Of a stretch of 64,000 bases of DNA, positions 43,566 to 64,000 are shown piece after piece (within the stretch, counting starts at the first letter, position 1; every line of letters starts with the position of its first letter). A program made the position numbers and the translations under genes. The notes beneath the pieces were generated by a model that had not been told where the DNA came from, searched no databases, and saw only the letters and a program-made list of their open reading frames with translations. Source of the DNA: an uncultured Acidimicrobiia bacterium (GTDB lineage: Bacteria; Acidobacteriota; Terriglobia; Versatilivoradales; Versatilivoraceae); assembly GCA_963791795.1 (NCBI GenBank), contig CAWBTP010000002.1, positions 19,407 through 83,406 of the forward strand, read 5' to 3'.

Positions 43566-43610
43566 TTTCCGTAGCATGCAGCCGCTGAAGCTAAGGGACC
43601 CTCCTCGGGA

Positions 43611-44084: not shown

Positions 44085-44154
44085 CTCTTCTATCTCCTTT
44101 ACTGCGAACCAGGCAGCCTTGCCAAGCTGCCATCACAGTTATCGTGTTGATCCC

Positions 44155-44823: not shown

Positions 44824-44984
44824 CTTTCCTCGAGTTCACTCCTAATCGCGATCCTTCAACGACCGATGCCTCTGATCATCTCATCGAACCACGATGGTTT
44901 CTAGCAGAGCGTCCGGTGCTCGTCAAGTTGCAGCCCTCGGGTACAGGCGTTGACAGGAGCTAAGCCGGAGAAGACAATCTTTCC

Positions 44985-46083
44985 ATGCCTGCCATTTGGA
45001 TTGCTGCTGTTTTTCTGCTTGGCCTGCCAGACGCCTCGGAAGTTGTCTTTGAAAGAGCAGCCTCGGCTCTGGCAGCACAGGATTACGGCGCGGCAGAGCA
45101 GGGATTCGCCGCCGTTCTCAAGAAGCAGCCTAATCACATCGGAGCCCTCGGCAACCTCGGCGTTGTCTATTCCCGGACACAACGGTCGGCTCGGGCCATC
45201 GAGACTTACCGGCGTGCGCTGGCTTTGAACCCGGGAGACCTGGCCCTGCGCCTGAATCTAGGCTTGGTGTACTTCAAGCAGGAAAACTACCAGCTCGCCG
45301 CCAGGCAGTTTTCTCGGATTGTCGCAAAGCAGCCCAATCATCGTCAGGCACAAGAGCTGCTCGCAACGTGTCAGATTCATCTGGGTGAACCGAAGCTCGC
45401 GATCTCTTCTCTGGAATCCCTCAGAGAGTCTGATCCGAAGAATGCCGGCGTGTTGTATCTCTTGGGTATGGCCTACCTGAGAAACCAGCAGCCAGATAAA
45501 GCAAAGCCGCTTCTCGACGAGATGATGCTGACGGCTCTGAGCCCCGCGCAGGCACACTTCCTCTTGGGGAAGGCCTACTACGATGGCGCCCGATTCGCAG
45601 AATCCAGAGAAGCTTTTCTGAAGGTACTTGAGCTCGAACCTGCTTTCCCCAACGCACAACTGGAGCTTGGCAAGGTGTTGGTAAGTTTGAGGGAGCCCGA
45701 AGAGGCACGGGCCGCTTTTCTGACGGCGATGGAAAGGAATCCTCAAGATAGCGAGGCCCCATATTTCTTGGGGTCTCTCTTAGTGAACGAAGGACGCGTA
45801 GACGAGGCTGCTTGTTCCGCTGGCACGAGCAGAGCAACTAAACCCAGACTTCTGGGGGACGCTTTACTATTTGGGAAAAGCCAAATTGCAACTGAAGAAC
45901 CCAGCGGAAGCCGTCTCTCTTCTGCAGCGAGCTGCGGAGCTGAACAGCGAAGAGGATGCGATCTTCTACCAACTGGCACTCGCTTTGCGCGCCAGCGGTC
46001 GCCAAGCCGAAGCCAAAACAGCCATGGAACGGGTCAGCCAACTGAAAGCAAAAAAAAGAGCCCCGCTGTTGCGGGGCTCTTGA
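44985..46083 (+). CDS. Exported TPR protein, +1 frameshift near 45808
   Basis: Multiple TPRs (ALGNLG, LRLNLG, YLLG, HFLLG); the TPR pattern continues in the 45871-46083 frame. Confidence 0.8.
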
Positions 46084-46161
46084 AGAACGACGTGCGGAGA
46101 TGAGGATCTGAGCATAGCGAGCAACCTCATACCATCGAGGGTTGGCCTCCGCTGTGGACGG

Positions 46162-46253
46162 CCCCTCACCCGGCCTCCGCGACCGCGTGAAGTCTTCTAA
46201 GACTTCACCTTTGGCCACCCTCTCCCAATGGGAGAGGGGTTGGGGGTGAGGGG
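46162..46253. repeat. REP-like composite palindrome containing a nested type-B insert (46175-46211)
   Basis: Same host family as 23400-23455 plus a 34-bp insertion bounded by CCT...CCT. Confidence 0.8.
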
Positions 46254-46305
46254 TCAGTAGTTCAAACAAACTTGACCAAGTTTGAACTACCGCTGCCAAG
46301 TGGAA

Positions 46306-49300: not shown

Positions 49301-49741
49301 CTCGCGAACCTGCTGCGAATCGATGGTAAACGATTTCAGAGCGGAACTGGTTTCGACCAACGGAACCTGGGCTTCGACACTGACCGACTGGGTAATCTCA
49401 CCCAGCTCCAAAGTGAGAGTTCCCAGATTCATGACCTGATAAGGGTCCAAGACCAGCCCTTTGCGCTCAAGGGCCTTGAATCCGCTGCTCTCAGCCTTGA
49501 CGGTGTAGGTGCCGCGTTGCAACGGCTGCAACTGAAACGAACCGTCTTCCGCGGACGTGGTTTCACGAACCACCAACTGCTTCGCCTCATCGAAAGCGCT
49601 AACTTTGGTATTTCCAATCACTCCGCCTTGGGCATCAACCACGATTCCCCGAATGGTGCCGCTCTGACCAAAAACAGAGCTCGTGCCCAGAACAGCAAAA
49701 AGCAGTATGACGAAACTGCTAGTGCTCCAATGGCTATTCAT
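46306..49741 (-). CDS. Oar-like TonB-dependent receptor with carboxypeptidase-regulatory-like N-domain, +1 frameshift near 48380
   Basis: Signal peptide, LNGRDF..L...PGV, EFKVQTS.FNAEYG, NQFGGNLGGP, barrel ending RNIQFGFKIYF. Confidence 0.88.
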
Positions 49742-50237
49742 GGCTACTCCTTGTGTAATCTATAACCACGAGTCAGGAAAGGACCTGTCAGAAAACAAGT
49801 CTTGCGCCGTGGATTTAGTGGTGGCACGCGATCGAGAGAAGTTACGTTCTCCCAATCTTGGGAATGCTCTGAGCGGCCCGCGTAATCGTGGTTCTCAAGC
49901 GGACTTGCTGAGGCACAGCTTTACGGCGCTAGGACAATTACACTAAGTCTAAAGCAGTCCTGAACAAAGTCAAGACATCGAGAGATAAGACTCATCGGGA
50001 TATAGAACCTCTTCAGTTCGCTGTCTTCCGGAAGTTGCCCGACCACAGGCAGCCGTCCAGCGCCTCGGAAGCGCAACCCCGGTCGTCGCCACTTAAGGTC
50101 TCTGCAGAAAACCATTCCGAGGCCTCGCGTGCTACGGGCTCGTTCTGGAAGAAGCTGGGAAGTCTTGTGCTATAGTCCGGCTCTTGCTGCGAGCTGATGA
50201 AGTACCTTCTGCAATGTCTGAGGAGCGTTGAATCACG

Positions 50238-51311
50238 ATGTTCAAAACGTTGGAATGGACGCAAGACGGCGTCGTCATGATCGACCAGCGCAAGCTGCCG
50301 GGTGAGGAGCTTTACCCGGTCTTCAAGACGTATCAGGAAGTAGCCGAGGCCATTCGAGACATGGTCGTACGAGGGGCCCCGGCCATCGGCGTAGCTGCCG
50401 CCATGGGCGTGGCGCTGGGGGTGAAGCACATTCAGACAGACAATCCTCAGGAATTCGAGCGGCAGTTTGGCGAAATCTGCCAAACACTCGCCTCAACGCG
50501 CCCGACAGCCGTCAACCTTTTCTGGGCGATTGAGCGCATGAAGCGCGTGTTTCAGCAGCATTTTCCTACAGGTGACTTGCAACGCGTCAAGAGTGCACTC
50601 GAAGCCGAAGCCGTCGGGATGCACGAGGAGGACATCGCTCTCAATCGCCGTATGGGCAGTTTTGGCGCTGGGCTTCTGGGTGAACGAGTCCTAACGCACT
50701 GCAATGCCGGCGCGCTGGCGACTGCCGGCTATGGAACGGCGCTTGGGGTTATCCGTGCCGCGGTGGAGCAGGGGAAAAAGATTCAGGTGTTCGCCGACGA
50801 AACGCGGCCCTTTCTGCAGGGAGCCCGGCTCACCGCCTGGGAGCTGCAAAAGGATCACATTCCGGTCACGCTGATCACAGACAACATGGCGGGCTATTTC
50901 ATGCAACAGGGCAAGATTGACTGCGTTGTCGTCGGGGCGGATCGGATTGCGGCCAATGGAGATGTTGCCAACAAGATTGGAACCTACTCAGTGGCCGTGC
51001 TTGCGAAGGAGAACAATATTCCCTTTTACGTCGCGGCACCCATCTCCACGTTGGACCTCAGCCTGCCTTCAGGAAAACAGATCCCGATCGAGCAGCGTCC
51101 CGGTCGAGAAGTAACTCACATCCAGCAATCAGCCATCGCGCCCGAAGGAGTGCAGGTTGCCAACCCTGCCTTTGACGTGACCCCCAACCGGTATGTGACC
51201 GCAATCATCACCGAACGCGGCGTGGCACGAGCTCCTTACGAACAAAGCTTGAAGACGCTCTCAACTCTCCGATTGACGCCGGTAGTTCGCAGGCGGTGCT
51301 ATCGAAAGTAG
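50238..51311 (+). CDS. mtnA: S-methyl-5-thioribose-1-phosphate isomerase
   Basis: [53 protein letters not shown]. Confidence 0.95.
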
Positions 51312-52306
51312 AAGAGAAGAATCCCATACCCCACGCCTGCTTCGTCGGTTGTTCGGGCGAGCTGAAACGCCATGAAGCGACCGTCAGTGGATACAACAGG
51401 GTTGGAAGCCTTGCCTCCTTCATAATCATTGAAGTTTGTAAGCCGCTGAAAGTCCTTCCCCGTCCCGTCGAGACGGAGCTTCCAGATGTCGATATTGCGA
51501 GACCCATGCTCGCCACCCAATGTCTCGACTTGACGATCCGCTTCCACCAACGTGTGTTTCCCGTCGGGCAGAATTCCTTCCACTTCGTTGTAGGTTCCCG
51601 GAGCCTTTGAGACGTTCTCGGCCCTTCCGGTTTCGAGATCCAGAACCATGACCGAAGCCAGGCCCTTCGGTTCGTAACAGGTAAAAGTCAGCTTCCGGTC
51701 ATTGTCGAAAAAATCTTGCGATTCCACCCGGCAATCAGCGCTGCGGCTTTCATAAACCATGCGCTTGTTGGTTAGCCGCGGCGTCTTGCCCGAAGGATCC
51801 ATATCCGCCACGAACAACTGGGACTGTTCTGGCGCCAGCGTGGGGTCTTGCGCGCTGAGCACCGCGAATGAGATTTTCAGGCTCGTCTTCGAAAGGGCAG
51901 CCCCTTCACTCATCTTCTGCCCGAAGCGCACAGGTTTCGACCCAGTCCGCTTGCTCAGGAACCACAGCTCGTTGTCTTCCCTCCGGCTGGTGCGCAGTTC
52001 TTTGAATCGCTCAGGCCCGATAAGGATGTAGTCACCGGAAACCAGATGCATGATGCGGAGAAACGCAGCTCCCGGGACGCTGCAGGTCAGGCAGCGGATT
52101 TTTCGGTCTTTCAGGCCGACAACAAACGCATCTCCGAAACTCTTGTTCATGAAGGCAATCTGTTGGTTGTCGGGTGAAATGTCGGCGCGCTCTCCAAAAT
52201 GAGTCACCACTTCAACATTCTTCGGCAAGTGCTCCATGGGATTCTCGGGCTTCCTTTGCGCATAGGCACACCCTGCCATCAGGAGAACAATGACGAAACG
52301 AACCAT
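51299..52306 (-). CDS. Secreted TolB/PD40-like beta-propeller protein
   Basis: Signal peptide; repeats [27 protein letters not shown]. Confidence 0.7.
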
Positions 52307-52390
52307 CTGCTTCCCTCCTCAATCAGACAGCGCGCTTTGGTAGGGGGCGCTGCTTGGGATTCGGTGCGAAAGCCTTGCCGCCCATGCACC

Positions 52391-53683
52391 CTACTGCCGG
52401 GTTCCGACATCAAGAGCCAGGAGACTCTTGCGGTCCCGCACGTAGAGTGTGTTCCCAACCAGAGAAGGGGCTGTCCAGGCAATGTGAGTCAGAAGTGGGA
52501 CTTTGGAGTGAATCTGCAAGCCACTCGGTGAAACAGTAGCCAGGGCCAGATTCCCATCTTCGTCGACCAGAAAGAACTTCCCATCTGCATAAACAAAGCT
52601 TGCTTTGGAGAGGCCGCGATTTTGCCAGGCAACCTCGCCGGTCTTGATGTCCACGGCAGAAAAGAAGGCCGGGCCAAAATCACCGCTGGAGCCGTAGATG
52701 TGGGCCCCAATGCGCACAGCGTTTCCGATGTGGATGCGCAATCGGTTTGTAAACCATAGTTGCCGGACGGTGGTCTTTCCTGCTTGTTGCGAAAGTTGCA
52801 GGAGCCGACTGCCTCCGCTGTAGGCCGAAGTGCAGAACAACAGGTTCCCTTCCGACCACACGGGTAGGCTGATGTTAAGTCCCCAGTCTGTCTTGTGAGG
52901 ATGGCTCCATAACAAGGTGCCGTTGTTTGGATCGAAACCAGCGATGATATCGCCCAGGAATGCGACTAGCTGATCCTGCCCATCCACGTTGATGATCAGG
53001 GGAGATGATGGAGAGGATGCCAGATCGTGCTGCTTCCAGGCCACACTCCCATCCTTCTGGTTGAATGCCATCAAAGCCTGGCCCGTTCCGCCGACTGGAA
53101 GAATCACAGTCTGTTTGTAGGCGACCGGGCTGCAGGAATAGCCACGATCCCTGCGGGGCGCGCGGTATTCCTTCAGGAGGTCGTGGTACCAGAGCGTCTT
53201 TCCGGTGTTCTTGTCTTTGCAATAAAACTTGCCCGTAATACCCACCGTGTAAATCTGATTTCCTACCACCAGTGGCGTGACATGGGGGCCGGGGCCGTTC
53301 TCCATTTTCATGCCAGGTTCGAAGGGAGCATCGTAGGGGTCTTCCCACAACGTTTTCCCGGTTTGTGCGTCCAGCGCTACGACCACTTCCCGGTTAAACT
53401 TGCTGCCGGCTTGTGCAGTCGAAACCCGGTACATCGTGTAGAGCTTGCCGACGTCCGAGGCGATTCCCGAGTAACCTTCGCCTAATGGGCGGCTCCAAAC
53501 CTTCCGTGGGCCCTCGGCAGGCCAAGTATTGGCCAGACCTTTTGAAGGCGAAGTGAAGTTGCGCAGGGGGCCTCCGAACTGAGGCCATCCTGCAGGAGTC
53601 TGTGCTCCAAGGTTCATAGGACCAAACGCGGAAAGCAGCGCCACTGAAAGGATATAGTCGCGAAAACTGGTGGAGTGCGTCAT
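52391..53683 (-). CDS. PQQ-like (BamB-type) beta-propeller protein
   Basis: WPQFGGP.RN, repeated ALD..TGK..W, AWTAPSL...LYVR. Confidence 0.85.
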   Translation of the reverse strand: MTHSTSFRDYILSVALLSAFGPMNLGAQTPAGWPQFGGPLRNFTSPSKGLANTWPAEGPRKVWSRPLGEGYSGIASDVGKLYTMYRVSTAQAGSKFNREVVVALDAQTGKTLWEDPYDAPFEPGMKMENGPGPHVTPLVVGNQIYTVGITGKFYCKDKNTGKTLWYHDLLKEYRAPRRDRGYSCSPVAYKQTVILPVGGTGQALMAFNQKDGSVAWKQHDLASSPSSPLIINVDGQDQLVAFLGDIIAGFDPNNGTLLWSHPHKTDWGLNISLPVWSEGNLLFCTSAYSGGSRLLQLSQQAGKTTVRQLWFTNRLRIHIGNAVRIGAHIYGSSGDFGPAFFSAVDIKTGEVAWQNRGLSKASFVYADGKFFLVDEDGNLALATVSPSGLQIHSKVPLLTHIAWTAPSLVGNTLYVRDRKSLLALDVGTRQ

Positions 53684-54129
53684 GAGTCCCTCGCCAATGA
53701 GTCTGGTCTCGGTTGACTCTGGGGTTTTTCGAACTCCAGAACGCTATCCCGAAGTTCGTCTGAAATGGGTTTGGCTCGCTTCGTCTCCGAGTCAAAACAG
53801 GCCTGAACGGTCAACCCGTCGGCGACGACGCGTCCTGTCTGGCTCTCAACAATCTGATACTCAAAAACGAAACTCGACTTCTTGAGCTCGGAAACTTTGG
53901 CGAATAATCGCAGCATTTCCCCGACGTGCGCGGGAGAACGATAGTTGCACTCGGCGCGCACAACCACAAAACTATGCCGACTGAATGCCTCGCTGCCAAA
54001 GAGATTCTTCCAGTAGTGCAATCGGGCGATCTCAAAGTAAGTGAGGTAGACCGCGTTGTTCACATGTCCGAGGGCATCCAGGTCACGGAAGCGGACTTCG
54101 ATTTGAGTTGAAAACTTGAACGCAGACAT
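53680..54129 (-). CDS. Acyl-CoA thioesterase (4HBT/FadM-like hotdog fold)
   Basis: VRFRDLDALGHVNNAVYLTYFE. Confidence 0.9.
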   Translation of the reverse strand: MSAFKFSTQIEVRFRDLDALGHVNNAVYLTYFEIARLHYWKNLFGSEAFSRHSFVVVRAECNYRSPAHVGEMLRLFAKVSELKKSSFVFEYQIVESQTGRVVADGLTVQACFDSETKRAKPISDELRDSVLEFEKPQSQPRPDSLARDS

Positions 54130-54181
54130 CCCAGGAAACGATTGTTTGGGCGAGCTTGGACACAAACCCAGCGATGGACTT

Positions 54182-54319
54182 TTCACCGCAGAGGACGCGG
54201 AGACCGCAGAGAATCTGAGAAGTCGTTCACGATTCGCCGAACCATCTTTGAGAACAGTAACATTGAAGTTGATGAGCAGCCGCAATGATCTTGCCTGTTA
54301 TCGCGTTCTCTGCGATGAA
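54182..54319. repeat. Degenerate inverted-repeat element with 9-bp periodic CGCAGAG arms
   Basis: ttcaccgcagaggacgcggagaccgcagaga vs tcgcgttctctgcgatgaa (16/19 complementary). Confidence 0.65.
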
Positions 54320-54320
54320 T

Positions 54321-55340
54321 CTAGCCGCCGAGCCAGGATTCCAGAGCCAGACGCGCAGCCCCTCGAGCGCCCGCCATGTCGCCGTCGGGGGCGATCTCAA
54401 CCGTCACACCCATCTGTTCATCCCGCAGAGGCAGGTGCTTCCGCAGCACCCCAAGAAACCACTCGCGGAACTCAGGCATCGTCTGCATCACGCCGCCGCC
54501 GACAAAAAACGCGTCCAGGTCGAGAAACTGCATTGCAATATCAAAAAGCACTGCCAAAGCGATGGCTTGTTTCTCGAAGATCTGCCGGGCCATCGGATCG
54601 CCATTCTCTCCAAAGGCCCGAACCTGCTTTGACCTTGCTCCGCCGGCATCGTTCACCTGCCAGAGAGGGTGATTCGGATATTTCTGCAGGTAGTAAGGCA
54701 GAAGATTATTTCGGATGCCGGTGAGAGACGCCCATGCTTCGGCATCACCTTCGCGGCCGCAGTTGCACTTGGGCATCGGTTGGCCGGGCTCCAGAAGACC
54801 GTGGGAAGGGAGAACCACGTGACCTGTCTCGGCCGCAAAACCGGTGTTGCCGACCACAAGCTGGCCATTCACGACGACACCGCCTCCCAAGCCGGTTCCA
54901 ACAGCGGCAGTCATGGAAGAGAATTTCGAATCCCGGCCGAACTTCACGCGGTGGCAGTGCAGCGCGGCTGCGTTGCCATCGTTCGCGTACAGCGTGGGCA
55001 GACCGATCACGTCCTGGAACGCCTCACGGATTGGAAACCTCGCCCACTCGCTGTTGCCAAAGTTCGTCGATCCCTGAGCTGAGATCACGCCGTCGGCGCT
55101 TGCGGGTCCCGGGGTGTCGAGGCCCACGGATCTGACGCTTCTCATGTCGATCTCGCTGATCTTCGCTGCTTGCTTCAGCGCCACTTCCATCTGCTTCAGC
55201 GTCACCGCTGGTCCCTGCTCGACCAGTGATGGCGACTCCATCATCTCCGAGATGCGGAACGTACCATCCTCTCCCAGAATCGTGACGTTGACTTTGGTGC
55301 CTCCAAGATCAACTCCGGCGAAGAAGTTCTGACTGGACAT
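54321..55340 (-). CDS. ROK-family sugar kinase
   Basis: GVDLGGTK, NDGNAAAL, GTGLGGG, ETGH, CNCG. Confidence 0.9.
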   Translation of the reverse strand: MSSQNFFAGVDLGGTKVNVTILGEDGTFRISEMMESPSLVEQGPAVTLKQMEVALKQAAKISEIDMRSVRSVGLDTPGPASADGVISAQGSTNFGNSEWARFPIREAFQDVIGLPTLYANDGNAAALHCHRVKFGRDSKFSSMTAAVGTGLGGGVVVNGQLVVGNTGFAAETGHVVLPSHGLLEPGQPMPKCNCGREGDAEAWASLTGIRNNLLPYYLQKYPNHPLWQVNDAGGARSKQVRAFGENGDPMARQIFEKQAIALAVLFDIAMQFLDLDAFFVGGGVMQTMPEFREWFLGVLRKHLPLRDEQMGVTVEIAPDGDMAGARGAARLALESWLGG

Positions 55341-55362
55341 GCAGGATCCTCAGTAGTCACTA

Positions 55363-56331
55363 TCACTCAGTACTCATCACTTCGCTCGTAGCAGCAGGTT
55401 CCAACACCCGCGTCGCTTGCATTGTCCGGGAACCGAGGTCGCTGTTCAGGCGCTGGAGAAACTCCGCAAACAGCCGGGCATATCGGTCCAGAACTTCCAG
55501 GCCTCCGCCTTCGAGAAGAGGCGAGCACATTTCGTACGCCACAGCACCCTGAAAGCCTCCTTCGGCCAGCGTTTTCAGGAACTGAGCGTAATCAATGAAC
55601 CCTTCTTCGATGGGAACGGCCTGAACGTAGGGCAGTTGCTCGGAGTAGTTCACGAGCGCGGGATTGTAGTGGTAGCGGGGCCGCCGCTGGTAGTTCGCGA
55701 CCGTGGTCTGTACCGTCAGGGGTGCCAGCTTGCGCGCGGCAGCGACAAGGTCGACTCCGTGCAGCGCTGGCGCCCAAGCGTCGAACATCGCTTTGCAGTT
55801 GGGCTCGTCAACGGCCCGAATCAGATCGTTAAAGCTCTCGTATCCGACTCCGATGTCGTGGTGATTCTGAACGCCAAGGGTCACGCCAAACTCGCTGGCG
55901 CGGCGCGCCGATTCCTTTAGCGCCGCCACGATAAGCTTCCATTGAGCGTGGTACGTACTGGCAGGATTCTCGTAGCCAGTGAAAATCCGCACGAAGCTAC
56001 CTCCCAGATCACTCGCCAAGCGGGCCAACTCGGTAATGTGTTGAATCTGAATTTCCCGGTGCGGTACCTCAGAGTGTTCCAGGTCTGCAGTCAAGTTGTT
56101 ATACCCGGCAATGCACAAGCGTTCGGTCTTTCTGCGCTCCAGTTGCCTGCGCAACTGGGTCCTGGCCTTCGCATCCCAATCCAAAACGGAAAGATGCGGG
56201 CGCTTGGCCATCAGCATAACGCCACCAAAGCCGAGATCTGCGGCTCTGTCGATGAACTGCTCAAGCGAAAGAGCCGCCTGGCCCCACGAGCCGGAGTAGC
56301 TGACGGAGTGCAGCATTGGGACGAAAGACAT
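55363..56331 (-). CDS. Sugar phosphate isomerase/epimerase (xylose isomerase-like TIM barrel)
   Basis: VRIFTG, GVQNHHD, FDAW, YEMC. Confidence 0.8.
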   Translation of the reverse strand: MSFVPMLHSVSYSGSWGQAALSLEQFIDRAADLGFGGVMLMAKRPHLSVLDWDAKARTQLRRQLERRKTERLCIAGYNNLTADLEHSEVPHREIQIQHITELARLASDLGGSFVRIFTGYENPASTYHAQWKLIVAALKESARRASEFGVTLGVQNHHDIGVGYESFNDLIRAVDEPNCKAMFDAWAPALHGVDLVAAARKLAPLTVQTTVANYQRRPRYHYNPALVNYSEQLPYVQAVPIEEGFIDYAQFLKTLAEGGFQGAVAYEMCSPLLEGGGLEVLDRYARLFAEFLQRLNSDLGSRTMQATRVLEPAATSEVMSTE

Positions 56332-57488: not shown

Positions 57489-58373
57489 TCACGCCCGACC
57501 TTGCTTCCCTACCGCTTCATTCAACTGCTTCGTAAGGCGGGGCACAGCCACTTCGGCAGCTTCGTCCGCTTCGTACTCTAGCGCCAGGTAGCCCTTGTAT
57601 CCACCCTTGGCAAGCAGGGTCAAAATCCGGTTCCAGTCGGATGGCAGCTTTTTGCCATTCTCCGAAATCTCGGTTTTGAATTGCACATTCACGGCATAGG
57701 GCACGCAGGCTTCGATCTGGGCATACGTGTCACTTCGAAAATTGCCCGTGTCGAGATTGATCCCAACCCAGGGTGAGTTCACCGCTTTGACGATCTGCAC
57801 GACTCTTTCCGCCTTTGACGTGATGCCACCGTGGTTCTCCAGTCCAAGGATGACACCCTTTCTGCCGGCGTAATCCGCGGCGCGCTTCAGGATGCCAACC
57901 ACCCACTCCGCTGCCTGATCCTCCGTCGATCCTTTGGGCACGTCTCCACCGAAGACGCGAATGTGGCCGGCCCCAAGCTTTGCAGCCACCTCCACCCACC
58001 TCTCCAGCCAGGCCGACTCGCGCTCGCGCAGATCCTCGGTAGGTCGGCACATATCTGAGCGAATCGAAATGCTGTAGATCTCGACGCCGTTCTTGTAGGC
58101 CAGTCGGCGCAACGGCAGCAGGAAATCGTCGCTCGTGTTCGGGAACCAATACACGGTGAGATCGAGCCCGTCCACATCGAGCTCCACGGCCAGACGAACG
58201 AGGTCATCGTAGGTCATGGATTTCTTTTTCAGTGCGTCGCGAAATGAATACGCACAAATGGCGGTGCGCAACCGGGCACTGCCCTTGGGCAAAGTGTCAG
58301 CGGCCAGGACGCTGGAAGCGTTCCCGAAAGCAGCGAGCATAGGCAAGGACTTCAGGAGGTCTCTGCGGTTCAT
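57489..58373 (-). CDS. Tat-exported sugar phosphate isomerase/epimerase-family protein
   Basis: MNRRDLLK twin-arginine signal, RVFGG, LENHGG, NLDTGNF, LEYE. Confidence 0.85.
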   Translation of the reverse strand: MNRRDLLKSLPMLAAFGNASSVLAADTLPKGSARLRTAICAYSFRDALKKKSMTYDDLVRLAVELDVDGLDLTVYWFPNTSDDFLLPLRRLAYKNGVEIYSISIRSDMCRPTEDLRERESAWLERWVEVAAKLGAGHIRVFGGDVPKGSTEDQAAEWVVGILKRAADYAGRKGVILGLENHGGITSKAERVVQIVKAVNSPWVGINLDTGNFRSDTYAQIEACVPYAVNVQFKTEISENGKKLPSDWNRILTLLAKGGYKGYLALEYEADEAAEVAVPRLTKQLNEAVGKQGRA

Positions 58374-58493
58374 AGTGTGCCTCTCATAGAATTGGGGGAA
58401 CCAGCAACGGAATTGTCCATCGAGGTGCTCAACATAGCTGTCGAGGCAAGGCATTGTCAAATAGCTCGACTCGACAACCAAAAGGGGTGGCGA

Positions 58494-58540
58494 CAATTCC
58501 CCCTTGAAGGGGGCAGCACCAACAGGTGCGGGGTTTGTCT
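58494..58540. repeat. REP-like element (same family as 57411)
   Basis: caattcccccttgaagggggcagcaccaacaggtgcggggtttgtct. Confidence 0.65.
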
Positions 58541-58778
58541 GAAGAGGCCAGAGAACCCCGAGGCAAGCTGTGAAAACTGTAGTGGCCGCTCTATGAGCGG
58601 TTCGCCGATTCTGAGAACTGGCGCAACACCAGCGCGCCGCGACCGGGGTTTCGGCCGACACAAGCGCTTGTGATGAATACCTCCGACATCTATAATGCGT
58701 CGGTTCACCGTCCACCGGCGCGATAGGTTGATAAGTGCCTGAGGACCACGATGAGAACGATCTTTAATAGGAGCCATC

Positions 58779-60236
58779 ATGGATAGAGAGAGTTGTGACA
58801 TTGGTCTGATCGGGCTGGCTGTGATGGGACAGAACCTGGTTTTGAACATGAACGACCACGGCTATCGCGTGGCAGTGTTCAACCGCACGGTCTCAAAGGT
58901 GGACGAGTTTATCCACAATGAAGCTGCTGGGACTCGCGTCGCTGGGACGCACTCGATCGAGGAGTTCGTTCAGTCCCTGAAGCGTCCGCGGCGCGCCATG
59001 CTGATGGTCAAGGCGGGCTCCACGGTTGATGAAATGATCGCCCAACTCCTGCCCCACCTTGAAAAGGGCGACATTGTCATTGATGGTGGCAATTCGCACT
59101 ACCCGGATACGAACCGTCGCACCCGAGAACTGGCGGAGAAAGGCGTTCTGTTCATCGGGACAGGCGTCTCGGGTGGCGAAGAAGGCGCGCGACACGGCCC
59201 ATCGATCATGCCAGGGGGAAATCCCGCGGCTTGGCCGCACGTGAAGGAAATCTTCCAGGCCATCGCAGCCAAAGTGGAAGACGGATCTCCGTGTTGCGAC
59301 TGGGTGGGCGAGGAAGGCGCAGGGCACTACGTGAAGATGGTGCACAATGGCATCGAGTATGGCGACATGCAGCTCATTTGTGAGGCGTACCACCTGTTGC
59401 ACGAAGGATTGGGGCTGAACGCCGATGAATTGCACGAGGTTTTCGCGGACTGGAATCGCGGAGAGCTGGACAGCTACCTCATCGAGATCACGGCCGAGAT
59501 CTTCAAGAAAAAGGATGAGGACGGCGCACCCCTGATCGACAAGATTCTCGACACGGCCGGTCAGAAGGGCACGGGGAAATGGACGGGCATCAGCGCGCTG
59601 GAGTTGGGAACACCGGTGACGTTGATCGGCGAAGCGGTGTTTGCACGTTGCCTGTCTGCTCTTAAAGACGAACGCGTCAAAGCTTCAGCGGTTCTGACTG
59701 GCCCCAAACCGGCCGTCTCTGCAGATCGCGCCGCCTTCATCGAAGACGTTCGTCGCGCGCTGTATTGTTCGAAGATGATTTCCTACGCTCAAGGCTACAT
59801 GCTGCTGCGCGAAGCGGCGAAGGATCAGAAGTGGAACCTGAATTTTGGCGGCATCGCCTTAATGTGGCGCGGCGGCTGCATTATTCGCAGCCAATTTCTA
59901 GGCAAGATCAAAGAGGCCTATGACAAGAACCCGCAGCTCAACAACCTGCTACTGGATGATTTCTTCAGCAAGCTGCTGAACGACTATCAGGGTTCCTGGC
60001 GGCGAGCCATCGTCCACGCAATTGAAGCCGGTGTCCCGACGCCGGCGTTCTCAACAGCACTGTCCTTCTTCGACGGATACCGTACGGGCCGACTGCCCGC
60101 CAACCTGCTTCAGGCGCAACGCGATTTCTTTGGCGCTCACACCTACGAGCGCGTCGACAAGCCGCGTGGCGAGTTTTTCCACACCAACTGGACAGGTCGC
60201 GGCGGCCGCGTGGCGTCGGGAACATATAACGTGTGA
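58779..60236 (+). CDS. gnd: 6-phosphogluconate dehydrogenase, NADP-dependent, decarboxylating
   Basis: GLAVMG.NL, NRT, GVSGGEEGA, KMVHNGIEYGDMQ, QAQRDFFGAHTY. Confidence 0.97.
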   Translation: MDRESCDIGLIGLAVMGQNLVLNMNDHGYRVAVFNRTVSKVDEFIHNEAAGTRVAGTHSIEEFVQSLKRPRRAMLMVKAGSTVDEMIAQLLPHLEKGDIVIDGGNSHYPDTNRRTRELAEKGVLFIGTGVSGGEEGARHGPSIMPGGNPAAWPHVKEIFQAIAAKVEDGSPCCDWVGEEGAGHYVKMVHNGIEYGDMQLICEAYHLLHEGLGLNADELHEVFADWNRGELDSYLIEITAEIFKKKDEDGAPLIDKILDTAGQKGTGKWTGISALELGTPVTLIGEAVFARCLSALKDERVKASAVLTGPKPAVSADRAAFIEDVRRALYCSKMISYAQGYMLLREAAKDQKWNLNFGGIALMWRGGCIIRSQFLGKIKEAYDKNPQLNNLLLDDFFSKLLNDYQGSWRRAIVHAIEAGVPTPAFSTALSFFDGYRTGRLPANLLQAQRDFFGAHTYERVDKPRGEFFHTNWTGRGGRVASGTYNV

Positions 60237-60240
60237 AACG

Positions 60241-60276
60241 CCGAAGGTGGAACGACCGCGGTCGTTCAACCTTCGG
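60241..60276 (+). terminator. Near-perfect 36-bp palindrome just after gnd (terminator or REP)
   Basis: ccgaaggtggaacgaccgcggtcgttcaaccttcgg followed by gtgttgt. Confidence 0.5.
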
Positions 60277-60497
60277 GTGTTGTCATGATGTTGAGAGCGC
60301 CGACGCAAGAGTGGAAGCGGCTTCCAGCCGCTTACTGGAATTTCTAGACTGTTTGCAGCAGGAGAGACGATAGCCTTGTCGTGCAGGCTGCTAGCCCGCA
60401 ATTGGCTGTTCCAGCAAGCGGCAGGATGAGTTGTCCCCTCATCGGAGGCATCATCTCGAGAGCATGATGGAGGCAGCCACTCAAAGCCAAAAAGACA

Positions 60498-60525
60498 TTC
60501 GAACGAAAAATCCCTGTGATATATT
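60498..60525 (+). promoter_or_regulatory. Putative extended -10 promoter of the tRNA-Gly gene
   Basis: TTCGAA-16 nt-TATATT with TGTG directly upstream (TGnTATATT). Confidence 0.45.
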
Positions 60526-60547
60526 AGTCAGCGATCAAGTCGCACGG

Positions 60548-60614
60548 CTCCCCCTTGCGCGTCACCCCGGCGGATAGTAAGCCGGGGGTAAAAGGGGGAG
60601 ATGAAGAGAGGGTT
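60548..60614. repeat. REP-like element (ctccccctt/aagggggag) containing a nested type-A insert (~60558-60587)
   Basis: Perfect 9-bp host stem around cgtcaccccggcggatagtaagccgggg. Confidence 0.75.
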
Positions 60615-60663
60615 TATTCTCTTCAGGATATTTTTGACCTCATAAGCAACAGCCCACCGCTAA

Positions 60664-60687
60664 GCGGGAGTAATTCAGCGGTAGAAT
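60664..60687 (+). tRNA. 5' fragment of tRNA-Gly (acceptor 5' strand and D-arm), interrupted; probable att site
   Basis: GCGGGAG-TA-ATTC-AGCGGTA-GAAT: Gly-type GCGGGA start, U8/A9, paired D-stem ATTC/GAAT, A14-G15 and GG in the D-loop; followed by AT-rich non-tRNA sequence. Confidence 0.8.
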
Positions 60688-60745
60688 TTTTTATGAAAAC
60701 CAAGAAAAACCATTAGATAAATAAAGATAATATACACAGTAAGTT

Positions 60746-60774
60746 AAAGCCGCCAGAAGTTGTGGGCGGCTTTT
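60746..60774 (+). terminator. Rho-independent terminator-like hairpin in the element end
   Basis: aaagccgcc-agaagttgtg-ggcggctttt. Confidence 0.6.
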
Positions 60775-60876
60775 CTATTTTGCCGGTTTTTCGCTATTTT
60801 TGTTGCATACTTGGTGCACGGAAGGAGTAATATCCCCCGGGTTCTACTCCCAACCTCGGCAGATTCCAGGAGGCCA

Positions 60877-61971
60877 ATGCAAATCAAAGTTCGGCATAAA
60901 TTCCTGCGGGACGGCAAGAGGCGCACGGTTTATTTGGACTTCTACGAAAACGGGCGGCGGCGACTCGAATACTTGGGCCTCTATCTGACAGGCAATCGCA
61001 TCCAGGATAAGGAAACTTTGAGGCTGGCCGAAAACATCGCGGCCAAGCGGCGTTTGGAGTTCGTTAATGATCGGCACGGTTTTGTGATGATGGCGAAGCA
61101 ACAAGCCGATTTCGTCGCCTACTGCCGACGGCTGGGTGAGTCAAGGCAGGCTGCTAACACCCGTCTCGTCTGGCAGAACGCAATCAACCGATTGGAAGCC
61201 TTCACTGGCGGTCCCGTTCCAGTCAGCCAGGTCAATTATTCCTTCCTGCATGGGTTCAAGGATTACCTTCTCAAAGCAGTAAGTCCGAACAGCGCTCTCG
61301 TTTACTTGGCGCGAATCAAGACAGCCTGCCATCAGGCCGTCAAAGATGGCATCTTTTCCAAAAACCCGGCAGCGGACGTTTCCATTAAGAAGCGGGAAAC
61401 GCGACGGCAGTATCTCATTTTGGAAGAGCTGCAACGCTTGGCAGACGCGCCTTGCTCGAACGACCAGGCGAAACAGGCCTTTCTGTTTTCAGCCTTTACG
61501 GGTCTGAGATATTCCGACGTGCACGCTTTGACGTGGCAGAAGGTGAAGTGTCTGAACGGGAGCTTTGTCTTGGAATTCTCCCAAATCAAGACTGGCGAAG
61601 TCGAAACCCTCCCGGTTTCGGAACAGGCGGCGGCGATCCTTAGGAAGCAAGTCAATGCTGAAGTATCGCCTAGGATCATGCAGGAGGTCGTGTCGGATGC
61701 GGTTTTCAAGCTCGGAGCACAGCAAAGTATCGATAAGGCTATTCGACAGTGGGTAAAAAGAACCGGCATCAACAAGAATATTTCCTTCCATTGTGCCCGC
61801 CACACCTTCGCTACTCTTGGCCTGACTTGCGGCGTTGACCTTTACACCATGAGCAAATTGCTCGGGCACCGTGACATTGCTTCAACTCAGATCTATGCCA
61901 AAATCATCGACAAAAAGAAATTGGAAGCAGTGGCGATGCTGCCCACATTGCAATCCCCTATAAAAGACTGA
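60877..61971 (+). CDS. Tyrosine recombinase/integrase with arm-binding N-domain and SAM-like domain (Bacteroidetes NBU/CTn-like)
   Basis: AGGAGG RBS; YLDFYENGRRRLEYLGLYL N-domain; catalytic R (GLRYSD), K (QIKT), HxxR (HCARH), H (LGH), Y (TQIY). Confidence 0.93.
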   Translation: MQIKVRHKFLRDGKRRTVYLDFYENGRRRLEYLGLYLTGNRIQDKETLRLAENIAAKRRLEFVNDRHGFVMMAKQQADFVAYCRRLGESRQAANTRLVWQNAINRLEAFTGGPVPVSQVNYSFLHGFKDYLLKAVSPNSALVYLARIKTACHQAVKDGIFSKNPAADVSIKKRETRRQYLILEELQRLADAPCSNDQAKQAFLFSAFTGLRYSDVHALTWQKVKCLNGSFVLEFSQIKTGEVETLPVSEQAAAILRKQVNAEVSPRIMQEVVSDAVFKLGAQQSIDKAIRQWVKRTGINKNISFHCARHTFATLGLTCGVDLYTMSKLLGHRDIASTQIYAKIIDKKKLEAVAMLPTLQSPIKD

Positions 61972-62105
61972 CGGCCGCCGATCGCTTCAAGGCGGTCGGT
62001 TCCTGTCTTGGAAGACCCCCTCGACTGATCTATACTTCAGATAGGGTGCCTCGGGCCTATGATCCAGAAGTGATAAGAGGCAGTCAAAGTAGCTGGGCTG
62101 AACTC

Positions 62106-62438
62106 ATGAGTCATCGCGTCAATGATGAAATCGGTTTGGAATTGGGGCGCCGAGTTGCGGAGCGACTTGAGGCAGAACCGGAGTTGATCGGGGTCGCACT
62201 CGCCAACCTCGACAATTGGTCCATCAGCAATGCCAAAGTGTCGTCGCTTCTGCGTTGCTATTCGGAATGGCGGGCTGTCCTGAAGCGTCCACTCGTGGAA
62301 ATCTGCGAGTTGCTTCGCTCCGACACTGAGGAAGCACGTCGCCTCCGCCAGAATTCGCCCTTTGTTGGCGTTCTCTCGCCCCGGGAAGTCTGGGAAATCA
62401 AGCGCACGATCCGTCAACATGCACCGGTCTCACCTTGA
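62106..62438 (+). CDS. Small helical protein, putative antitoxin partner of the DUF6036 protein
   Basis: A.ANLDNW...EW..VL...LRQNSPFVGVLS pattern; overlaps the downstream NTase gene by 20 nt. Confidence 0.65.
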   Translation: MSHRVNDEIGLELGRRVAERLEAEPELIGVALANLDNWSISNAKVSSLLRCYSEWRAVLKRPLVEICELLRSDTEEARRLRQNSPFVGVLSPREVWEIKRTIRQHAPVSP

Positions 62439-62949
62439 GCATATCATTCGGGCATCTTCGGCCATTACTGGTGCTACGGAAATCGTTGTGATCGGTAGCC
62501 AGGCCATTCTGGCCCAATTCCCTGACGCACCGGCTGACCTTCTCGTCTCGATCGAAGCAGACGTGTTTACACTGAGGAGTCCCACTGATGCAGAGTTGAT
62601 TGACGGCTCGATTGGCGAGGGATCTCCCTTCCATCATACCTTCGGATACTATGCCCACGGTGTAAGCGAAGACACTGCTGTCCTGCCAGCCAATTGGAAG
62701 AGCCGTCTGGTTCCATTGCGGCATGAAGATACAGGTGGCGCCACGGCATTCTGCATAGAGATTCACGATCTGGCTGTTTCCAAATTGATAGCAGGACGAG
62801 AAAAGGATCTGCAGTTCGTTGCTGGGCTTTTGCGCCTCGAGTTGGTTGAACCGGAAATTTTTCGCCATCGATTGAACGAAACCCCGATAGACGAAGACCT
62901 GCGCGCCTTGTGCGAGGCAAGGTTGCTGCGCTTTTCCACTCAGGCATGA
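62419..62949 (+). CDS. DUF6036-like nucleotidyltransferase, putative toxin
   Basis: LEHIIRA, VIGSQAIL (GS motif), SIEAD, IGEGSPFH.TFGYYAHGV, DLAVSKL.AGREKD. Confidence 0.75.
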   Translation: MHRSHLEHIIRASSAITGATEIVVIGSQAILAQFPDAPADLLVSIEADVFTLRSPTDAELIDGSIGEGSPFHHTFGYYAHGVSEDTAVLPANWKSRLVPLRHEDTGGATAFCIEIHDLAVSKLIAGREKDLQFVAGLLRLELVEPEIFRHRLNETPIDEDLRALCEARLLRFSTQA

Positions 62950-63134
62950 CGATTGATATACCTTCAATCTCATCCTGATCATGCTGCATCCTGGCGAGCC
63001 TGGTTGGGTGCTTCCCCATCGAGACGAAAAGCGCGGTGACGCTGCGGCACTCCAGGCTACGACTACCGTGCTGAATCCGTTGACGCTTGGCGCGCGCCAT
63101 TCGCCGGAGAAATAAACCCACACACACAGCAAGA

Positions 63135-63689
63135 ATGGGCAAACGGCCAGACTCTCCTGCGGGAACCCTCAAACGGGCAAATTGGAAAGGGCGAAAGGCC
63201 CAGCTGGAAGCCCGCATTGCCTGCAAGAAGGTCAAGGTCACATTGGGTGACCATCTACGCCTGGCGGCCGCCGAAGCACGGAAATACTCAGAGAGCCTCG
63301 AGGAGATGATTCAACGCCGGGATGCTCTGCAGGCTAGGGCACCAAAAGGAAGACACAATCCCGAGTTGTACCAGCTTGAAAGGCATATTCGGCGCCGGCA
63401 AACTCATCGTACATTCAGAAGCGGCAAACTATTGCTGGCTGGGCTGCATGGTCGCGGCCGACCCAAGACCTTCTACCGTTTGGCATTGGAAAACGATTCT
63501 TCCTTCACGCCGAAACAGTACCTCGATGATTGGGGTCGAGGGAGATACCTCTCCAAGAAACAGCGGGCCATTGTGATGAAGAGATTGGAAAGGATTAGGG
63601 CTTCATTCTTGCGTTCTCTCAGAAACAGTGGTCAGCCAAGGCTACAGAGGGTATTGCCCTTATCATCGAAAGAGTCGAACGAAAAATAG
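63135..63689 (+). CDS. Hypothetical basic protein (element cargo)
   Basis: 184-codon ORF, Arg/Lys-rich, AT-hook-like GRGRPK; no recognised family. Confidence 0.5.
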   Translation: MGKRPDSPAGTLKRANWKGRKAQLEARIACKKVKVTLGDHLRLAAAEARKYSESLEEMIQRRDALQARAPKGRHNPELYQLERHIRRRQTHRTFRSGKLLLAGLHGRGRPKTFYRLALENDSSFTPKQYLDDWGRGRYLSKKQRAIVMKRLERIRASFLRSLRNSGQPRLQRVLPLSSKESNEK

Positions 63690-64000
63690 CCAAACAGCGT
63701 CAATGACTCTGAGGAGCTTATTTCGATTCGCCCGAAGTGTTCCGACAGGCTGTGGAGAGAATGTGATCGTCTCCTGTCTTTAGGACCAGGCCTTCTGTTT
63801 GCTCTTGAACTTATCAATGGACGATCGAATGGGTCAGAGTGGTGAAGCGGTAAACGTTGCAGTCTACCAGGCGCGACGCGCCTAGACGGGATCTGATCTG
63901 CAATCCGTTTCCCAGGCACTGGCGGCTGAGCAGGACAATTCGTTCGCCAGGTCCTTTAAATACAGCTGCCGCCCTGGCGTTCAGCTTGTCGGGCTCAAAA

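Follow-up and report, generated by a model that had tools for sequence, protein, structure and literature searches.

Analysis of a window of contig C2 (the whole stretch of DNA studied, 64,000 nucleotides) revealed that a 24-nt tRNA fragment near its right end constitutes the left junction (attL) of an island that is integrated and probably mobilizable. The reading that we favour with good confidence is that positions 1–24 of the host's own tRNA-Gly(CCC) gene have been pushed aside by an island that starts right after them and runs rightward past the window and the contig, with an integrase that acts in the first 21–24 bases of the gene and a far end that rebuilds the tRNA.

A displaced 5′ fragment of tRNA-Gly(CCC) at the left edge of the island

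Direct reading of the 64-kb window gave GCGGGAGTAATTCAGCGGTAGAAT on the forward strand at 60664–60687. Comparison with the tRNA-Gly(CCC) genes called by ARAGORN in relatives found all 24 bases to be identical to positions 1–24 of these genes, but only 21 of 24 were identical to the tRNA-Gly(TCC) and tRNA-Gly(GCC) of the genome itself. An exact match of 24 nt to one specific tRNA is far above chance expectation in 64 kb. The preliminary description of this DNA had deduced the isotype Gly from the 5′ sequence; this was right, and the anticodon can therefore be named as CCC. The D-loop of the fragment, AGCGGTA, is set between the D-stem strands ATTC and GAAT, and past base 24 the tRNA sequence (gccagcttccc...) gives way to tttttatgaaaacc.

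The preliminary description had also listed a tRNA 5′ segment followed by a hairpin and an integrase, all of which were present, and had held that the rest of the tRNA is absent from the window, which agrees with the 0 tRNAs called there by ARAGORN and the lack of any Rfam tRNA match in 58000–64000 at E ≤10. Its view that the segment is a displaced 5′ tRNA piece at which an element with a tyrosine integrase begins is supported: a displaced tRNA end fragment at one boundary is part of the Islander signature of an island, and here the fragment is identical at 24 of 24 positions.

The junction is not an assembly chimera, a concern that had been raised before. It was found at 96–98% identity in a second assembly (G005:C61), and Logan contigs from three runs (X1, X2 and X3), each of a different study, also span it; one of these runs may be the source sample. 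Even the best-matching public runs share only 0.17–0.36 of the sampled words. The features of the junction and its surroundings are listed in Table 1.

Table 1. Features at and around the left junction of the island (positions in the window)
Feature	Position	Strand	Details
gnd (6-phosphogluconate dehydrogenase), host-side flank of the junction	58779..60236	+	Pfam 6PGD (E 5.5e-136), NAD_binding_2
Host-side intergenic hairpins	60548..60625	+	REP-like palindrome (28-nt core 60560–60587) and terminator-like hairpin (60602–60625)
Displaced 5′ fragment, tRNA-Gly(CCC) positions 1–24, core of attL	60664..60687	+	24/24 identity to relatives; same fragment by homologous integrases in 7/8 assessable loci
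Acceptor strand of the fragment	60664–60670	+	
D-stem strands of the fragment	60673–60676 and 60684–60687	+	
7-nt D-loop, proposed overlap region	60677–60683	+	
A/T-rich spacer, first element-derived DNA (P′ arm)	60688..60745	+	58 nt, 79% A+T; 96–98% identical in G005:C61
Hairpin with T-rich tail, proposed intrinsic terminator	60746..60784	+	−15 kcal/mol
Paired motif GTTGCA-N5-GGTGCA, proposed arm-type site for the N-terminal arm domain of the integrase	60802..60818	+	
Tyrosine integrase, 364 aa, intact	60877..61971	+	Pfam Arm-DNA-bind_5 (2.1e-5), Phage_int_SAM_5 (3.9e-16), Phage_integrase (2.9e-24)
Two overlapping cargo ORFs	62046..62949	+	130-aa protein without family match (62046–62438); DUF6036 nucleotidyltransferase (62419–62949)
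184-aa ORF without family match (63135–63689, +), then island DNA to the window end	63135..64000		

Spacers similar in length and composition (59–79% A+T) were found in all seven left junctions compared. The hairpin behind the spacer (AAAGCCGCC, 10-nt loop, GGCGGCTTT) has a 9-bp stem at 60746–60773 and was not listed by a simple terminator scan because its loop is 10 nt long. Its position is kept while its stem letters vary: in G013 and G007 a hairpin stands at the same offset with other stem letters (GCCACTC/GAGTGGC), plus TTTTCTTTTTT, and a hairpin with a T tail is strong in five of the seven left junctions.

The paired motif was defined as two GTTGYA half-sites, 11 nt apart, with at most one mismatch. 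By this definition it lies at +138 to +140 in 7/7 left junctions and also upstream of 6 of 12 intact tRNA-Gly(CCC) genes (at −66 to −69 before 5), against a background of 9 per 221,843 nt and a chance expectation of about 0.005 per 120 nt. The paired motifs on both arms are probably arm-type sites of the integrase.

Host flank

The gnd orthologues of the same-genus genomes G001 and G002 are 91–92% identical to that of the window. In G002 synteny is retained to the left of gnd and lost just after it; the DNA downstream of gnd differs between G001 and G002, leads into separate regions of the studied genome (C1 and C24), and was found to hold neither a tRNA nor an integrase in either of them. A lack of tRNA-Gly downstream of gnd in relatives had been named beforehand as evidence against an element that splits tRNA-Gly. 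Such a lack was formally observed in these two genomes, but the test is a weak one because the downstream DNA differs in each and because a more distant metagenomic relative shows the same adjacency of gnd and fragment. The 28-nt core of the REP-like palindrome recurs 16 times or more elsewhere in the studied genome (G000) and is also found in G001 and G005, and a weak Rfam 'Pab91' match corresponds to this palindrome. Upstream of the 24-nt fragment, a simple sigma-70 scan found no promoter.

The integrase and its homologues

Residues R211, K238, H305, R308, H331 and Y340 of the integrase, which we take to be the catalytic set of the tyrosine recombinase family, were invariant among the three aligned homologues and, together with the PF00589 match (E 2.9e-24), identify the protein as a tyrosine recombinase. 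The ORF is 99.7% identical between the studied genome and G005:C61.

In homologues with 61–69% identity, the same 5′ fragment precedes the integrase gene by 190–340 nt, or by 1.2 kb in L044. The earlier question whether homologous integrases also adjoin tRNA 5′ fragments can thus be answered in the affirmative for seven of the eight assessable loci, the fragment being found with the integrase in G013, G007/G041, L042, L043, L044 and the near-identical G005:C61. At the eighth locus, metagenome contig L041, the integrase is 98% identical to the studied one and adjoins gnd, and a deletion of about 254 nt took out the fragment with the whole attL region. A distant homologue, L046 (33% identical), has a tRNA 3′-end-like sequence upstream of its gene and no 5′ fragment; 5′ targeting therefore seems to be confined to the close clade. 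Scans of the collections of genome contigs and metagenome contigs used two narrow peptide patterns each and gave only 3 and 6 loci, which is a minimum for the size of the clade; the class-wide search of genomes for homologues scored only 5 candidates per genome.

Complete elements in related genomes

Two complete elements were found. On G013:C33, 36 kb separate the fragment (23/24) from an intact tRNA-Gly(CCC) that comes after it in the same orientation. On G041:C5 the fragment is located at 298407–298429 and the intact tRNA-Gly(CCC) at 310990–311064, the whole element (G007/G041) being 12.6 kb in size. Both end in a tRNA-Gly(CCC) recognised by ARAGORN, of which the first 23 nt and the upstream DNA are element-derived; this upstream DNA is of 17–33% G+C and contains the paired GTTGYA motif. 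An intact cognate tRNA at the far boundary in the same orientation, and with it 5′-side ('reversed') tRNA integration, was thus observed in G013 and G041/G007; the studied genome shows the displaced fragment alone. A sigma-70 scan, whose promoter rules do not cover this phylum, found no consensus on the tRNA strand ahead of either rebuilt tRNA.

Four more genomes (G012, G001, G002 and G005) have an intact tRNA-Gly(CCC) that is preceded by the paired motif as formally defined, and G011 has a two-mismatch variant of it, recognised by eye only. In G002 only a C-terminal integrase remnant is retained, about 280 nt upstream of the intact tRNA. The tRNA of G031, G009, G015, G024 and G020 has ordinary upstream DNA with no paired motif, as expected of unoccupied sites; no second copy of the fragment was found in G009, G015, G024 and G020, and G031 has a second match that is short and imperfect. 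The Logan contigs, which cannot show rare forms and whose uncovered parts are uninformative, contained no excision joint, and neither an attP nor an attB form of this element was seen.

Gene content and far end of the island

The island runs on along C2 to the end of the contig, 1,674 nt past the window. This part carries a frameshifted HTH_17 excisionase-like gene with a 1-nt deletion relative to G005:C61, which could also be an assembly error, and, at the end of C2, a NikA-like mobilization gene. The two overlapping cargo ORFs are also present in G005:C61, where a short TrwB-type coupling protein (347 aa) and a TrwC relaxase split into ORFs of 338 aa and 560 aa follow further along; no type IV secretion or mating-pore genes were found in the 61 kb of G005:C61. 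As judged from its genes, the island looks mobilizable but not self-transmissible, with the NikA-like gene present here and the coupling protein and relaxase only in G005:C61. It also bears signs of decay. The G013 and G041 elements have Prim-Pol or DUF3987 in place of the relaxase.

No Gly(CCC) gene was found among the 35 tRNA genes of the 35-contig assembly, which is 92.9% complete. Regular-expression and blastn-short searches over the whole assembly for the tRNA remainder (acceptor 3′ strand, T-arm, anticodon arm and full tRNA-Gly(CCC)) gave no matches beyond the fragment and the two remaining tRNA-Gly genes of the genome, and no right-junction signature was found next to a tRNA anywhere in the assembly, nor a far end beside the G002-type flank on C18. 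The intact tRNA at the far boundary was not found because C2 ends inside the island, and with an incomplete assembly its absence proves nothing. The copy on G005:C61 extends 61 kb rightward without reaching a tRNA, and no tRNA remnant was found at the right boundary of its mobile genes. C61 is 97–98% identical to the window, whereas the rest of G005 is 71–75% identical; C61 is therefore either mis-binned or recently transferred, and G005:C44 represents a different background. An intact tRNA-Gly(CCC) on C44, which shares almost nothing with the studied genome, was considered as the far end of the island and rejected.

A stranded relic is a serious, though lesser, possibility: an island of the same origin that has lost or rearranged its far junction or is no longer able to excise, so that the stub is a fossil and GGG is read by another tRNA-Gly or by a tRNA-Gly(CCC) encoded elsewhere. 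Decay of this kind would fit the deletion in the excisionase-like gene, the short coupling protein and split relaxase of G005:C61 and its 61 kb without a far end, as well as the loss of attL beside the 98%-identical integrase of L041 and the integrase remnant near the intact tRNA of G002. However, the integrase ORF is intact and nearly identical in two assemblies, the studied genome shows the attL core, spacer, hairpin and motif undamaged, the frameshift may be an assembly error, and the assembly is incomplete, with its 35 tRNA genes and a contig that ends inside the island.

Proposed mechanism of integration and probable position of the crossover

We propose that the tyrosine integrase, with its arm-binding, SAM_5 and catalytic domains, recombines inside the first 21–24 bases of the tRNA gene, and that the exchange most likely takes place in the 7-base D-loop, flanked by the dyad symmetry of the D-stem, as a counterpart of the anticodon loop and T-loop used by classical integrases. 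The far end of the element would carry its own copy of the first ~23 bases of the tRNA behind an A/T-rich upstream region, and integration would join this copy to the remaining host tRNA, giving an intact gene with upstream signals from element DNA. At the near end the host promoter would be orphaned, with only the 24-base stub behind it, and the A/T spacer and terminator hairpin that follow may shield the integrase from read-through by stopping transcripts from the orphaned tRNA promoter ahead of int. The roles of terminator, arm-type site and element promoter are ones that we infer.

In related left junctions the tRNA-like sequence departs at positions 21–24 (GAAT, GAAA, GTAT, GGAT, GGAA), so the exchange should lie at or to the left of the 3′ strand of the D-stem, most simply in the D-loop, inside the arm in which the repeat ends. 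The D-loop is thus a putative crossover point, placed by the end of identity and by analogy. The atypical site at the junction of D-arm and anticodon stem that had been suggested earlier is probably not the one used, since departure has already occurred at these positions.

An exchange closer to the extreme 5′ end of the gene, mirroring the asymmetric 3′-end sublocation and with the D-arm identity serving only to preserve the tRNA, seems unlikely. The identity between left and right junctions covers positions 1–23 plus 1–3 bases upstream in G013 and G007, and sequence alone therefore permits any point within this block. Yet an exchange near position 1 would not need the tRNA-like sequence to end in the D-stem, as it does in all copies, and the bases that follow remain an imperfect imitation of the 3′ strand of the D-stem (GAAT, GAAA, GTAT, GGAT), like a core-type half-site. 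The 7-nt loop with its flanking dyad also fits the canonical layout of overlap and core sites described for the anticodon and T loops in passages of PMC8371274.

Of the two outcomes envisaged in the preliminary description, the two complete elements of 36 kb and 12.6 kb support, for the family, the one in which the far end rebuilds the tRNA with a 5′ part and an upstream region supplied by the element. The other, an excision-dependent switch in which the tRNA gene is broken while the element is integrated and restored only by excision, is very improbable: no tRNA remainder was seen in the studied assembly, as a switch would have it, but the far end of each complete element has an intact tRNA-Gly(CCC), the gene is also intact behind the paired motif in four further genomes and behind its variant in G011, and the far arm brings the first 23 bases in register, which would be purposeless in a switch. 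Finally, an artefact, either a chance match or a chimeric joint, has only the draft metagenome-type assembly in its favour and is practically negligible against a 24/24 match to one specific tRNA, a junction that recurs in a second assembly and the contigs of three runs, and an architecture that recurs at 61–69% protein identity.

Implications

Tentatively, and at a little short of even confidence, we put forward a broader proposal. This Acidobacteriota integrase clade may use a fourth tRNA sublocation on the 5′ side of tRNA-Gly(CCC), formed by the D-loop and the dyad of the D-stem; the element would replace the first ~21 bases and all upstream signals, bringing a host tRNA under its transcriptional control, and the orphaned host promoter would be insulated by a conserved terminator. 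An unrelated P4-type integrase would use the 3′ end of the same tRNA, so that the gene can have an island on either side.

Displaced 3′ fragments and three crossover sublocations underlie both the textbook view and the software used to find islands. A repeat of only 23–24 nt that ends in the D-arm is easily missed, and such islands may therefore be under-counted in soil Acidobacteriota. Since 5′-side integration swaps the promoter and leader of the tRNA for element DNA, a rare-codon tRNA could come to rely on the element for its supply. Conservation of the terminator behind the stub suggests that keeping host transcription off the integrase gene is under selection. For the studied genome the finding is mainly a marker of an island boundary, and a warning that the assembly lacks both the tRNA-Gly(CCC) and the interior of the island.

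Comparison with known systems

Integration at the front end of a tRNA gene is a known, rare arrangement; the putative D-loop site would lie outside the three sublocations of Williams 2002 as given in passages of PMC8371274, namely the anticodon loop, the T-loop and the asymmetric 3′ end. The att identity block reaches none of these and stops at tRNA position 21–24. According to the same passages, at the anticodon-loop and T-loop sublocations a 7-nt loop and its stem dyad form the overlap and core sites (PMC8371274); the D-loop here has the same geometry but belongs to a different arm, on the 5′ side of the tRNA, and therefore the displaced piece is the 5′ one and the element must supply the upstream signals. 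A D-loop crossover was not found described in the literature on tRNA-gene attB sites and integrases, as judged from titles, the starts of abstracts and passages of PMC3293823 and PMC8371274, although a description may still exist.

The earlier contrast between typical and atypical integration was overstated, displaced 5′ fragments being a known minority class that includes archaeal pTN3-like cases and, in the Islander catalogue, 159 of 3,919 islands (PMC4383910). As in the complete related elements, the 5′-fragment islands in passages of that paper are tyrosine-integrase islands bounded by a displaced fragment and an intact tRNA gene in direct orientation, the 5′ fragment being on the upstream side of the gene. 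The same passages sort all islands into anticodon-centred or T-stem/junction attP sites (PMC4383910), whereas the repeat found here is only 23–24 nt long and stops in the D-arm, short of the anticodon stem.

The integrase has the same Arm-DNA-bind_5, Phage_int_SAM_5 and Phage_integrase architecture as Bacteroidota-type integrases, and it is likewise accompanied by mobilization genes (NikA-like, TrwB and TrwC). Among integrases of this type, those of NBU-type elements use tRNA 3′ ends. A system mentioned by Krupovic et al. is said to concern a rhizobial element.

Functional analogies exist in two other groups. The dusA-specific integrases likewise enter the 5′ end of their target gene, but the target is protein-coding and the integrase family a different one (PMC4482086). 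Another likeness, again only functional, is to the archaeal pTN3-like integrases of Thermococcales, which have the 5′ half of a tRNA gene as attB and leave displaced 5′ fragments (passages of PMC8371274). There, as proposed here, integration restores an unbroken tRNA, with element DNA then driving its expression; the target is longer and the rebuilt tRNA is said to use the integrase promoter, whereas the integrase of the present island lies at the opposite end, beside the displaced stub and behind the putative terminator.

Structure of the left junction

The preliminary description of a tRNA 5′ fragment followed by a spacer, a hairpin and an integrase gene, with the rest of the tRNA missing from the window, was confirmed in every detail (see table). 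ARAGORN found no tRNA gene in the window, and no Rfam tRNA match was obtained within positions 58000-64000 even at an E value of 10. The fragment, GCGGGAGTAATTCAGCGGTAGAAT, is identical at 24 of 24 positions to the tRNA-Gly(CCC) genes called by ARAGORN in nine relatives, which continue past position 24 with gccagcttcccaagctgg..., versus tttttatgaaaacc in the window. It differs from the Gly(TCC) and Gly(GCC) genes of the assembly under study (G000) at 3 of 24 positions each. These two are among the 35 tRNA genes found across the 35 contigs of this assembly, a Gly(CCC) gene is not, and the remainder of tRNA-Gly(CCC) was found nowhere in the assembly. The contig (C2) extends only 1,674 nt to the right of the window.

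Between the 6-phosphogluconate dehydrogenase gene gnd and the fragment lies a G + C-rich REP-like palindrome, which caused a spurious weak Rfam 'Pab91' match; its 28-nt core is found at 16 or more other places on G000 contigs, as well as in G001 and G005. To the right of the integrase gene, the first bases of a DUF6036 nucleotidyltransferase gene are overlapped by a 130-aa ORF without family match. This pair is conserved in contig G005:C61, and its layout is that of a two-gene toxin-antitoxin-like or defence module.

Features described in the text and their locations
Feature	Location	Details
REP-like palindrome	window 60548-60603	core 60560-60587
tRNA-Gly(CCC) fragment	window 60664-60687 (+)	tRNA positions 1-24
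D-loop	window 60677-60683	AGCGGTA
Spacer	directly 3′ of fragment	58 nt, 79% A+T
Hairpin	window 60746-60773	9 bp, T-rich tail
Paired motif	window 60802-60818	
Integrase gene	window 60877-61971	intact, 364 aa; Arm-DNA-bind_5, Phage_int_SAM_5, Phage_integrase
Overlapping gene pair	window 62046-62949	
HTH_17 gene	L060:560-745	450-640 nt past window end
G013 element	G013:C33:9627-45865	L014 and L013
G041 fragment	G041:C5:298407-298429	
G041 intact tRNA	G041:C5:310990-311064	
P4-like integrase genes	L013:362-1495; L036:15124-16206; L018:8758-9891	G013; G041/G007; G005:C44
tRNA-Gly(CCC) 3′ fragment	G041:C36:2753-2797	tRNA positions 31-75
tRNA 3′-end-like sequence	L046:2100-2500	
Integrase remnant	G002:C412 (L062) 2586-3015	
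tRNA-Arg(TCG) call	G000:C3:4286-4364	

The possibility that the junction is a chimeric misassembly was refuted by G005:C61, on which gnd, fragment, spacer, hairpin and integrase gene are all present at 96-98% nucleotide identity, and by Logan contigs bridging the junction in three runs from three studies, among which the source sample may be included. In one Logan contig a different spacer, of 261 nt, separates the fragment from the end of gnd, which is only ~86% identical. The last 10 kb of G005:C61, host-side gnd included, is 97-98.5% identical to G000:C2:75104-85080. The remaining G005 sequence is only 71-75% identical to the window, with its own copies of the window's genes on other contigs (window 40000-56000 compared), and therefore G005:C61 is either mis-binned or part of a recently transferred block that exceeds the island in size. 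Another contig, G005:C44, has almost nothing in common with G000. G005:C61 does not count as a separate organism in the ordinary way, but is still an independent assembly of the same junction.

The preliminary description had also held that the lack of a tRNA-Gly gene downstream of gnd in relatives would refute its reading. Such a gene is formally lacking in the same-genus genomes G001 and G002, but this carries little weight, because the genomes are syntenic to the left of gnd and each has different DNA to its right, the tRNA-Gly(CCC) genes of G001 and G002 are located elsewhere behind the right-junction signature of the element family, and the adjacency of gnd and fragment is common to a more distant metagenomic relative.

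Integrase homologues and conserved sites

Among 401 genomes sampled from the class, close homologues of the integrase (E 1e-40 or better, at most five candidates scored per genome) were found in four (G000, G005, G007 and G013), all of one family. Further loci (L028/L029 and L041-L045) came from genome-collection and metagenome scans with narrow peptide patterns, so that locus counts are lower bounds. Nine loci encode integrases at least 61% identical; L045, with only 107 nt upstream, was left out, leaving eight assessable. The preliminary description had suggested checking whether integrase homologues sit beside tRNA 5′ fragments, and they do: a tRNA-Gly-like 5′ fragment was found upstream in seven of the eight (G000, G005:C61, G013, G007/G041, L042, L043 and L044). 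The eighth, the metagenome locus L041, adjoins gnd and encodes an integrase 98% identical, and lacks ~254 nt matching window ~60582-60835 between two CCGGG repeats (L041:1000-1600 compared). This deletion removes fragment, spacer, hairpin and motif, and the L041 copy is fixed in place. A homologue of the same domain type but only 33% identical (L046) has no 5′ fragment upstream; instead, the sequence there (gttcgagtccggctcccggta) is similar to the T-arm and acceptor 3′ end of a tRNA, and ARAGORN made no call on it. This is probably a classical 3′-side site in a distant relative.

A uniform test was made for pairs of GTTGYA half-sites at a distance of 10-12 nt, allowing one mismatch over both. 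In all seven left junctions such a pair is located at +138 to +140 relative to the start of the fragment. The same pair lies upstream of 6 of 12 intact tRNA-Gly(CCC) genes, at -66 to -69 in five (G012, G013, G007, G001 and G002) and at -44 in G005, and a two-mismatch variant was spotted by eye in G011; the background was 9 matches in 221,843 nt, or ~0.005 per 120 nt. Since the integrase has an arm-binding domain, these pairs are putative arm-type integrase sites. No pair was found upstream of tRNA-Gly(CCC) in G031, G009, G015, G024 and G020. The last four also have no second fragment copy, on which basis we read them as unoccupied sites; G031 has a second short, imperfect match to the fragment.

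The hairpin with its T tail keeps its offset with different stems, GCCGCC/GGCGGC in G000 versus GCCACTC/GAGTGGC in G013 and G007, and is strong in five of the seven left junctions, the weak ones being those of L042 and L043. Its position would fit a terminator that keeps transcription from the orphaned host promoter out of the integrase gene.

Complete elements and site of exchange

In G013:C33, an intact tRNA-Gly(CCC) lies 36 kb beyond a fragment (23 of 24 positions) and integrase gene, in the same orientation. Within this element are an HTH_17 excisionase-like gene, a Prim-Pol gene and a defence-type gene set. A second complete element, of 12.6 kb, was found in G041:C5 (same genome as G007), carrying genes for integrase, HTH_17, DUF3987, Beta_protein, an IrrE-like protein and HigB. 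Both have a direct repeat of tRNA positions 1-23 plus 1-3 bases upstream, and the 60 nt before the rebuilt tRNA contain 17-33% G + C. In these elements, integration has thus moved the host 5′ stub to the integrase end, and at the far end the tRNA gene is rebuilt with an element-borne 5′ part and upstream region. The far-end rebuilding that the preliminary description gave as one of two options is supported by both elements; its placing of the exchange at the junction of D-arm and anticodon stem is not, the exchange being placed at or left of position 21.

The latter placement comes from the right edge of the tRNA-like sequence, which reads GAAT in the window, GAAA in G013 and G007, GTAT in L042, GGAT in L044 and GGAA in L043. 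Several of these variants would not pair with the D-stem 5′ strand ATTC, so the right-edge bases are element-derived. The 7-nt D-loop is flanked by an ATTC/GAAT dyad, a geometry matching that of the anticodon loop and T-loop used by classical integrases, as outlined in a review (PMC8371274). By this analogy the overlap region probably lies in the D-loop; the alternative is exchange at an asymmetric site nearer position 1. Judged from sequence, the D-loop sublocation is plausible but unproven.

The G013 element is a defence island, with cargo comprising HamA with a DEAD helicase (Hachiman-like), a PLD nuclease with a helicase, a trypsin-like protease, an Eco57I/MmeI-type methylase, an MZB-domain helicase, a NucS-like nuclease and DUF2779. 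Immediately 3′ of the intact tRNA-Gly(CCC), three genomes carry another, unrelated integrase gene of P4-like type (Phage_int_SAM_3, Phage_int_M and Phage_integrase domains), oriented toward the tRNA gene, and a displaced 3′ fragment is present on another contig of G041. These data indicate that two integrase families use tRNA-Gly(CCC), one at each end, and the gene can be flanked by an island on either side.

State of the element in G000

To the right of the window, C2 carries an HTH_17 excisionase-like gene truncated by a 1-nt deletion when compared with G005:C61. The deletion is a genuine frameshift or else an error of assembly. The contig ends in a NikA-like mobilization gene. G005:C61 continues with a TrwB-type coupling protein gene (347 aa), a TrwC relaxase gene split into two ORFs, and ~50 kb of metabolic and regulatory genes with a type I restriction subunit gene; neither mating-pore genes nor a tRNA were found on this continuation, and none of these 56 kb was found in the G000 assembly. 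The island is large or composite, and is probably mobilizable rather than conjugative. In G002, ~280 nt upstream of the intact tRNA-Gly(CCC), an integrase C-terminus remnant (54% identical over 52 aa) is followed by the paired motif; this is what is left of a collapsed element of the family. The HTH_17 frameshift, split relaxase, L041 deletion and G002 remnant together show decay in place. We consider it possible, though on balance doubtful, that the G000 copy is no longer able to excise.

On another G000 contig, an ARAGORN-called tRNA-Arg(TCG) is identical to the tRNA-Arg(TCG) of C16 from the anticodon stem onward, with an unrelated 5′ part; it looks like a classical displaced 3′ fragment, belonging to another island, that ARAGORN took for a gene.

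Comparison with known integration sites

Although rare, 5′-side integration into tRNA genes has been described. In the Islander survey, a 5′ fragment is listed for 159 of 3,919 islands (PMC4383910), 5′-distal recombination is termed "considerably less frequent" by Krupovic et al. 2019, who cite Zhao & Williams 2002 and archaeal cases (PMC6563490), and a 5′-terminal tRNA-Thr repeat is reported in Caldiarchaeum (PMC3293823). The window junction is a real island boundary of this rare but known type. A full-text literature search, judged on titles, the starts of abstracts and passages of PMC3293823 and PMC8371274, found no description of a D-loop crossover. The element family differs from the three sublocations summarised in the review (PMC8371274) in that its short identity block ends in the D-arm. 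Such a block appears to be new, as do the conserved layout, in which the integrase gene and putative terminator adjoin the stub and the tRNA is rebuilt at the other end, and soil Acidobacteriota as hosts.
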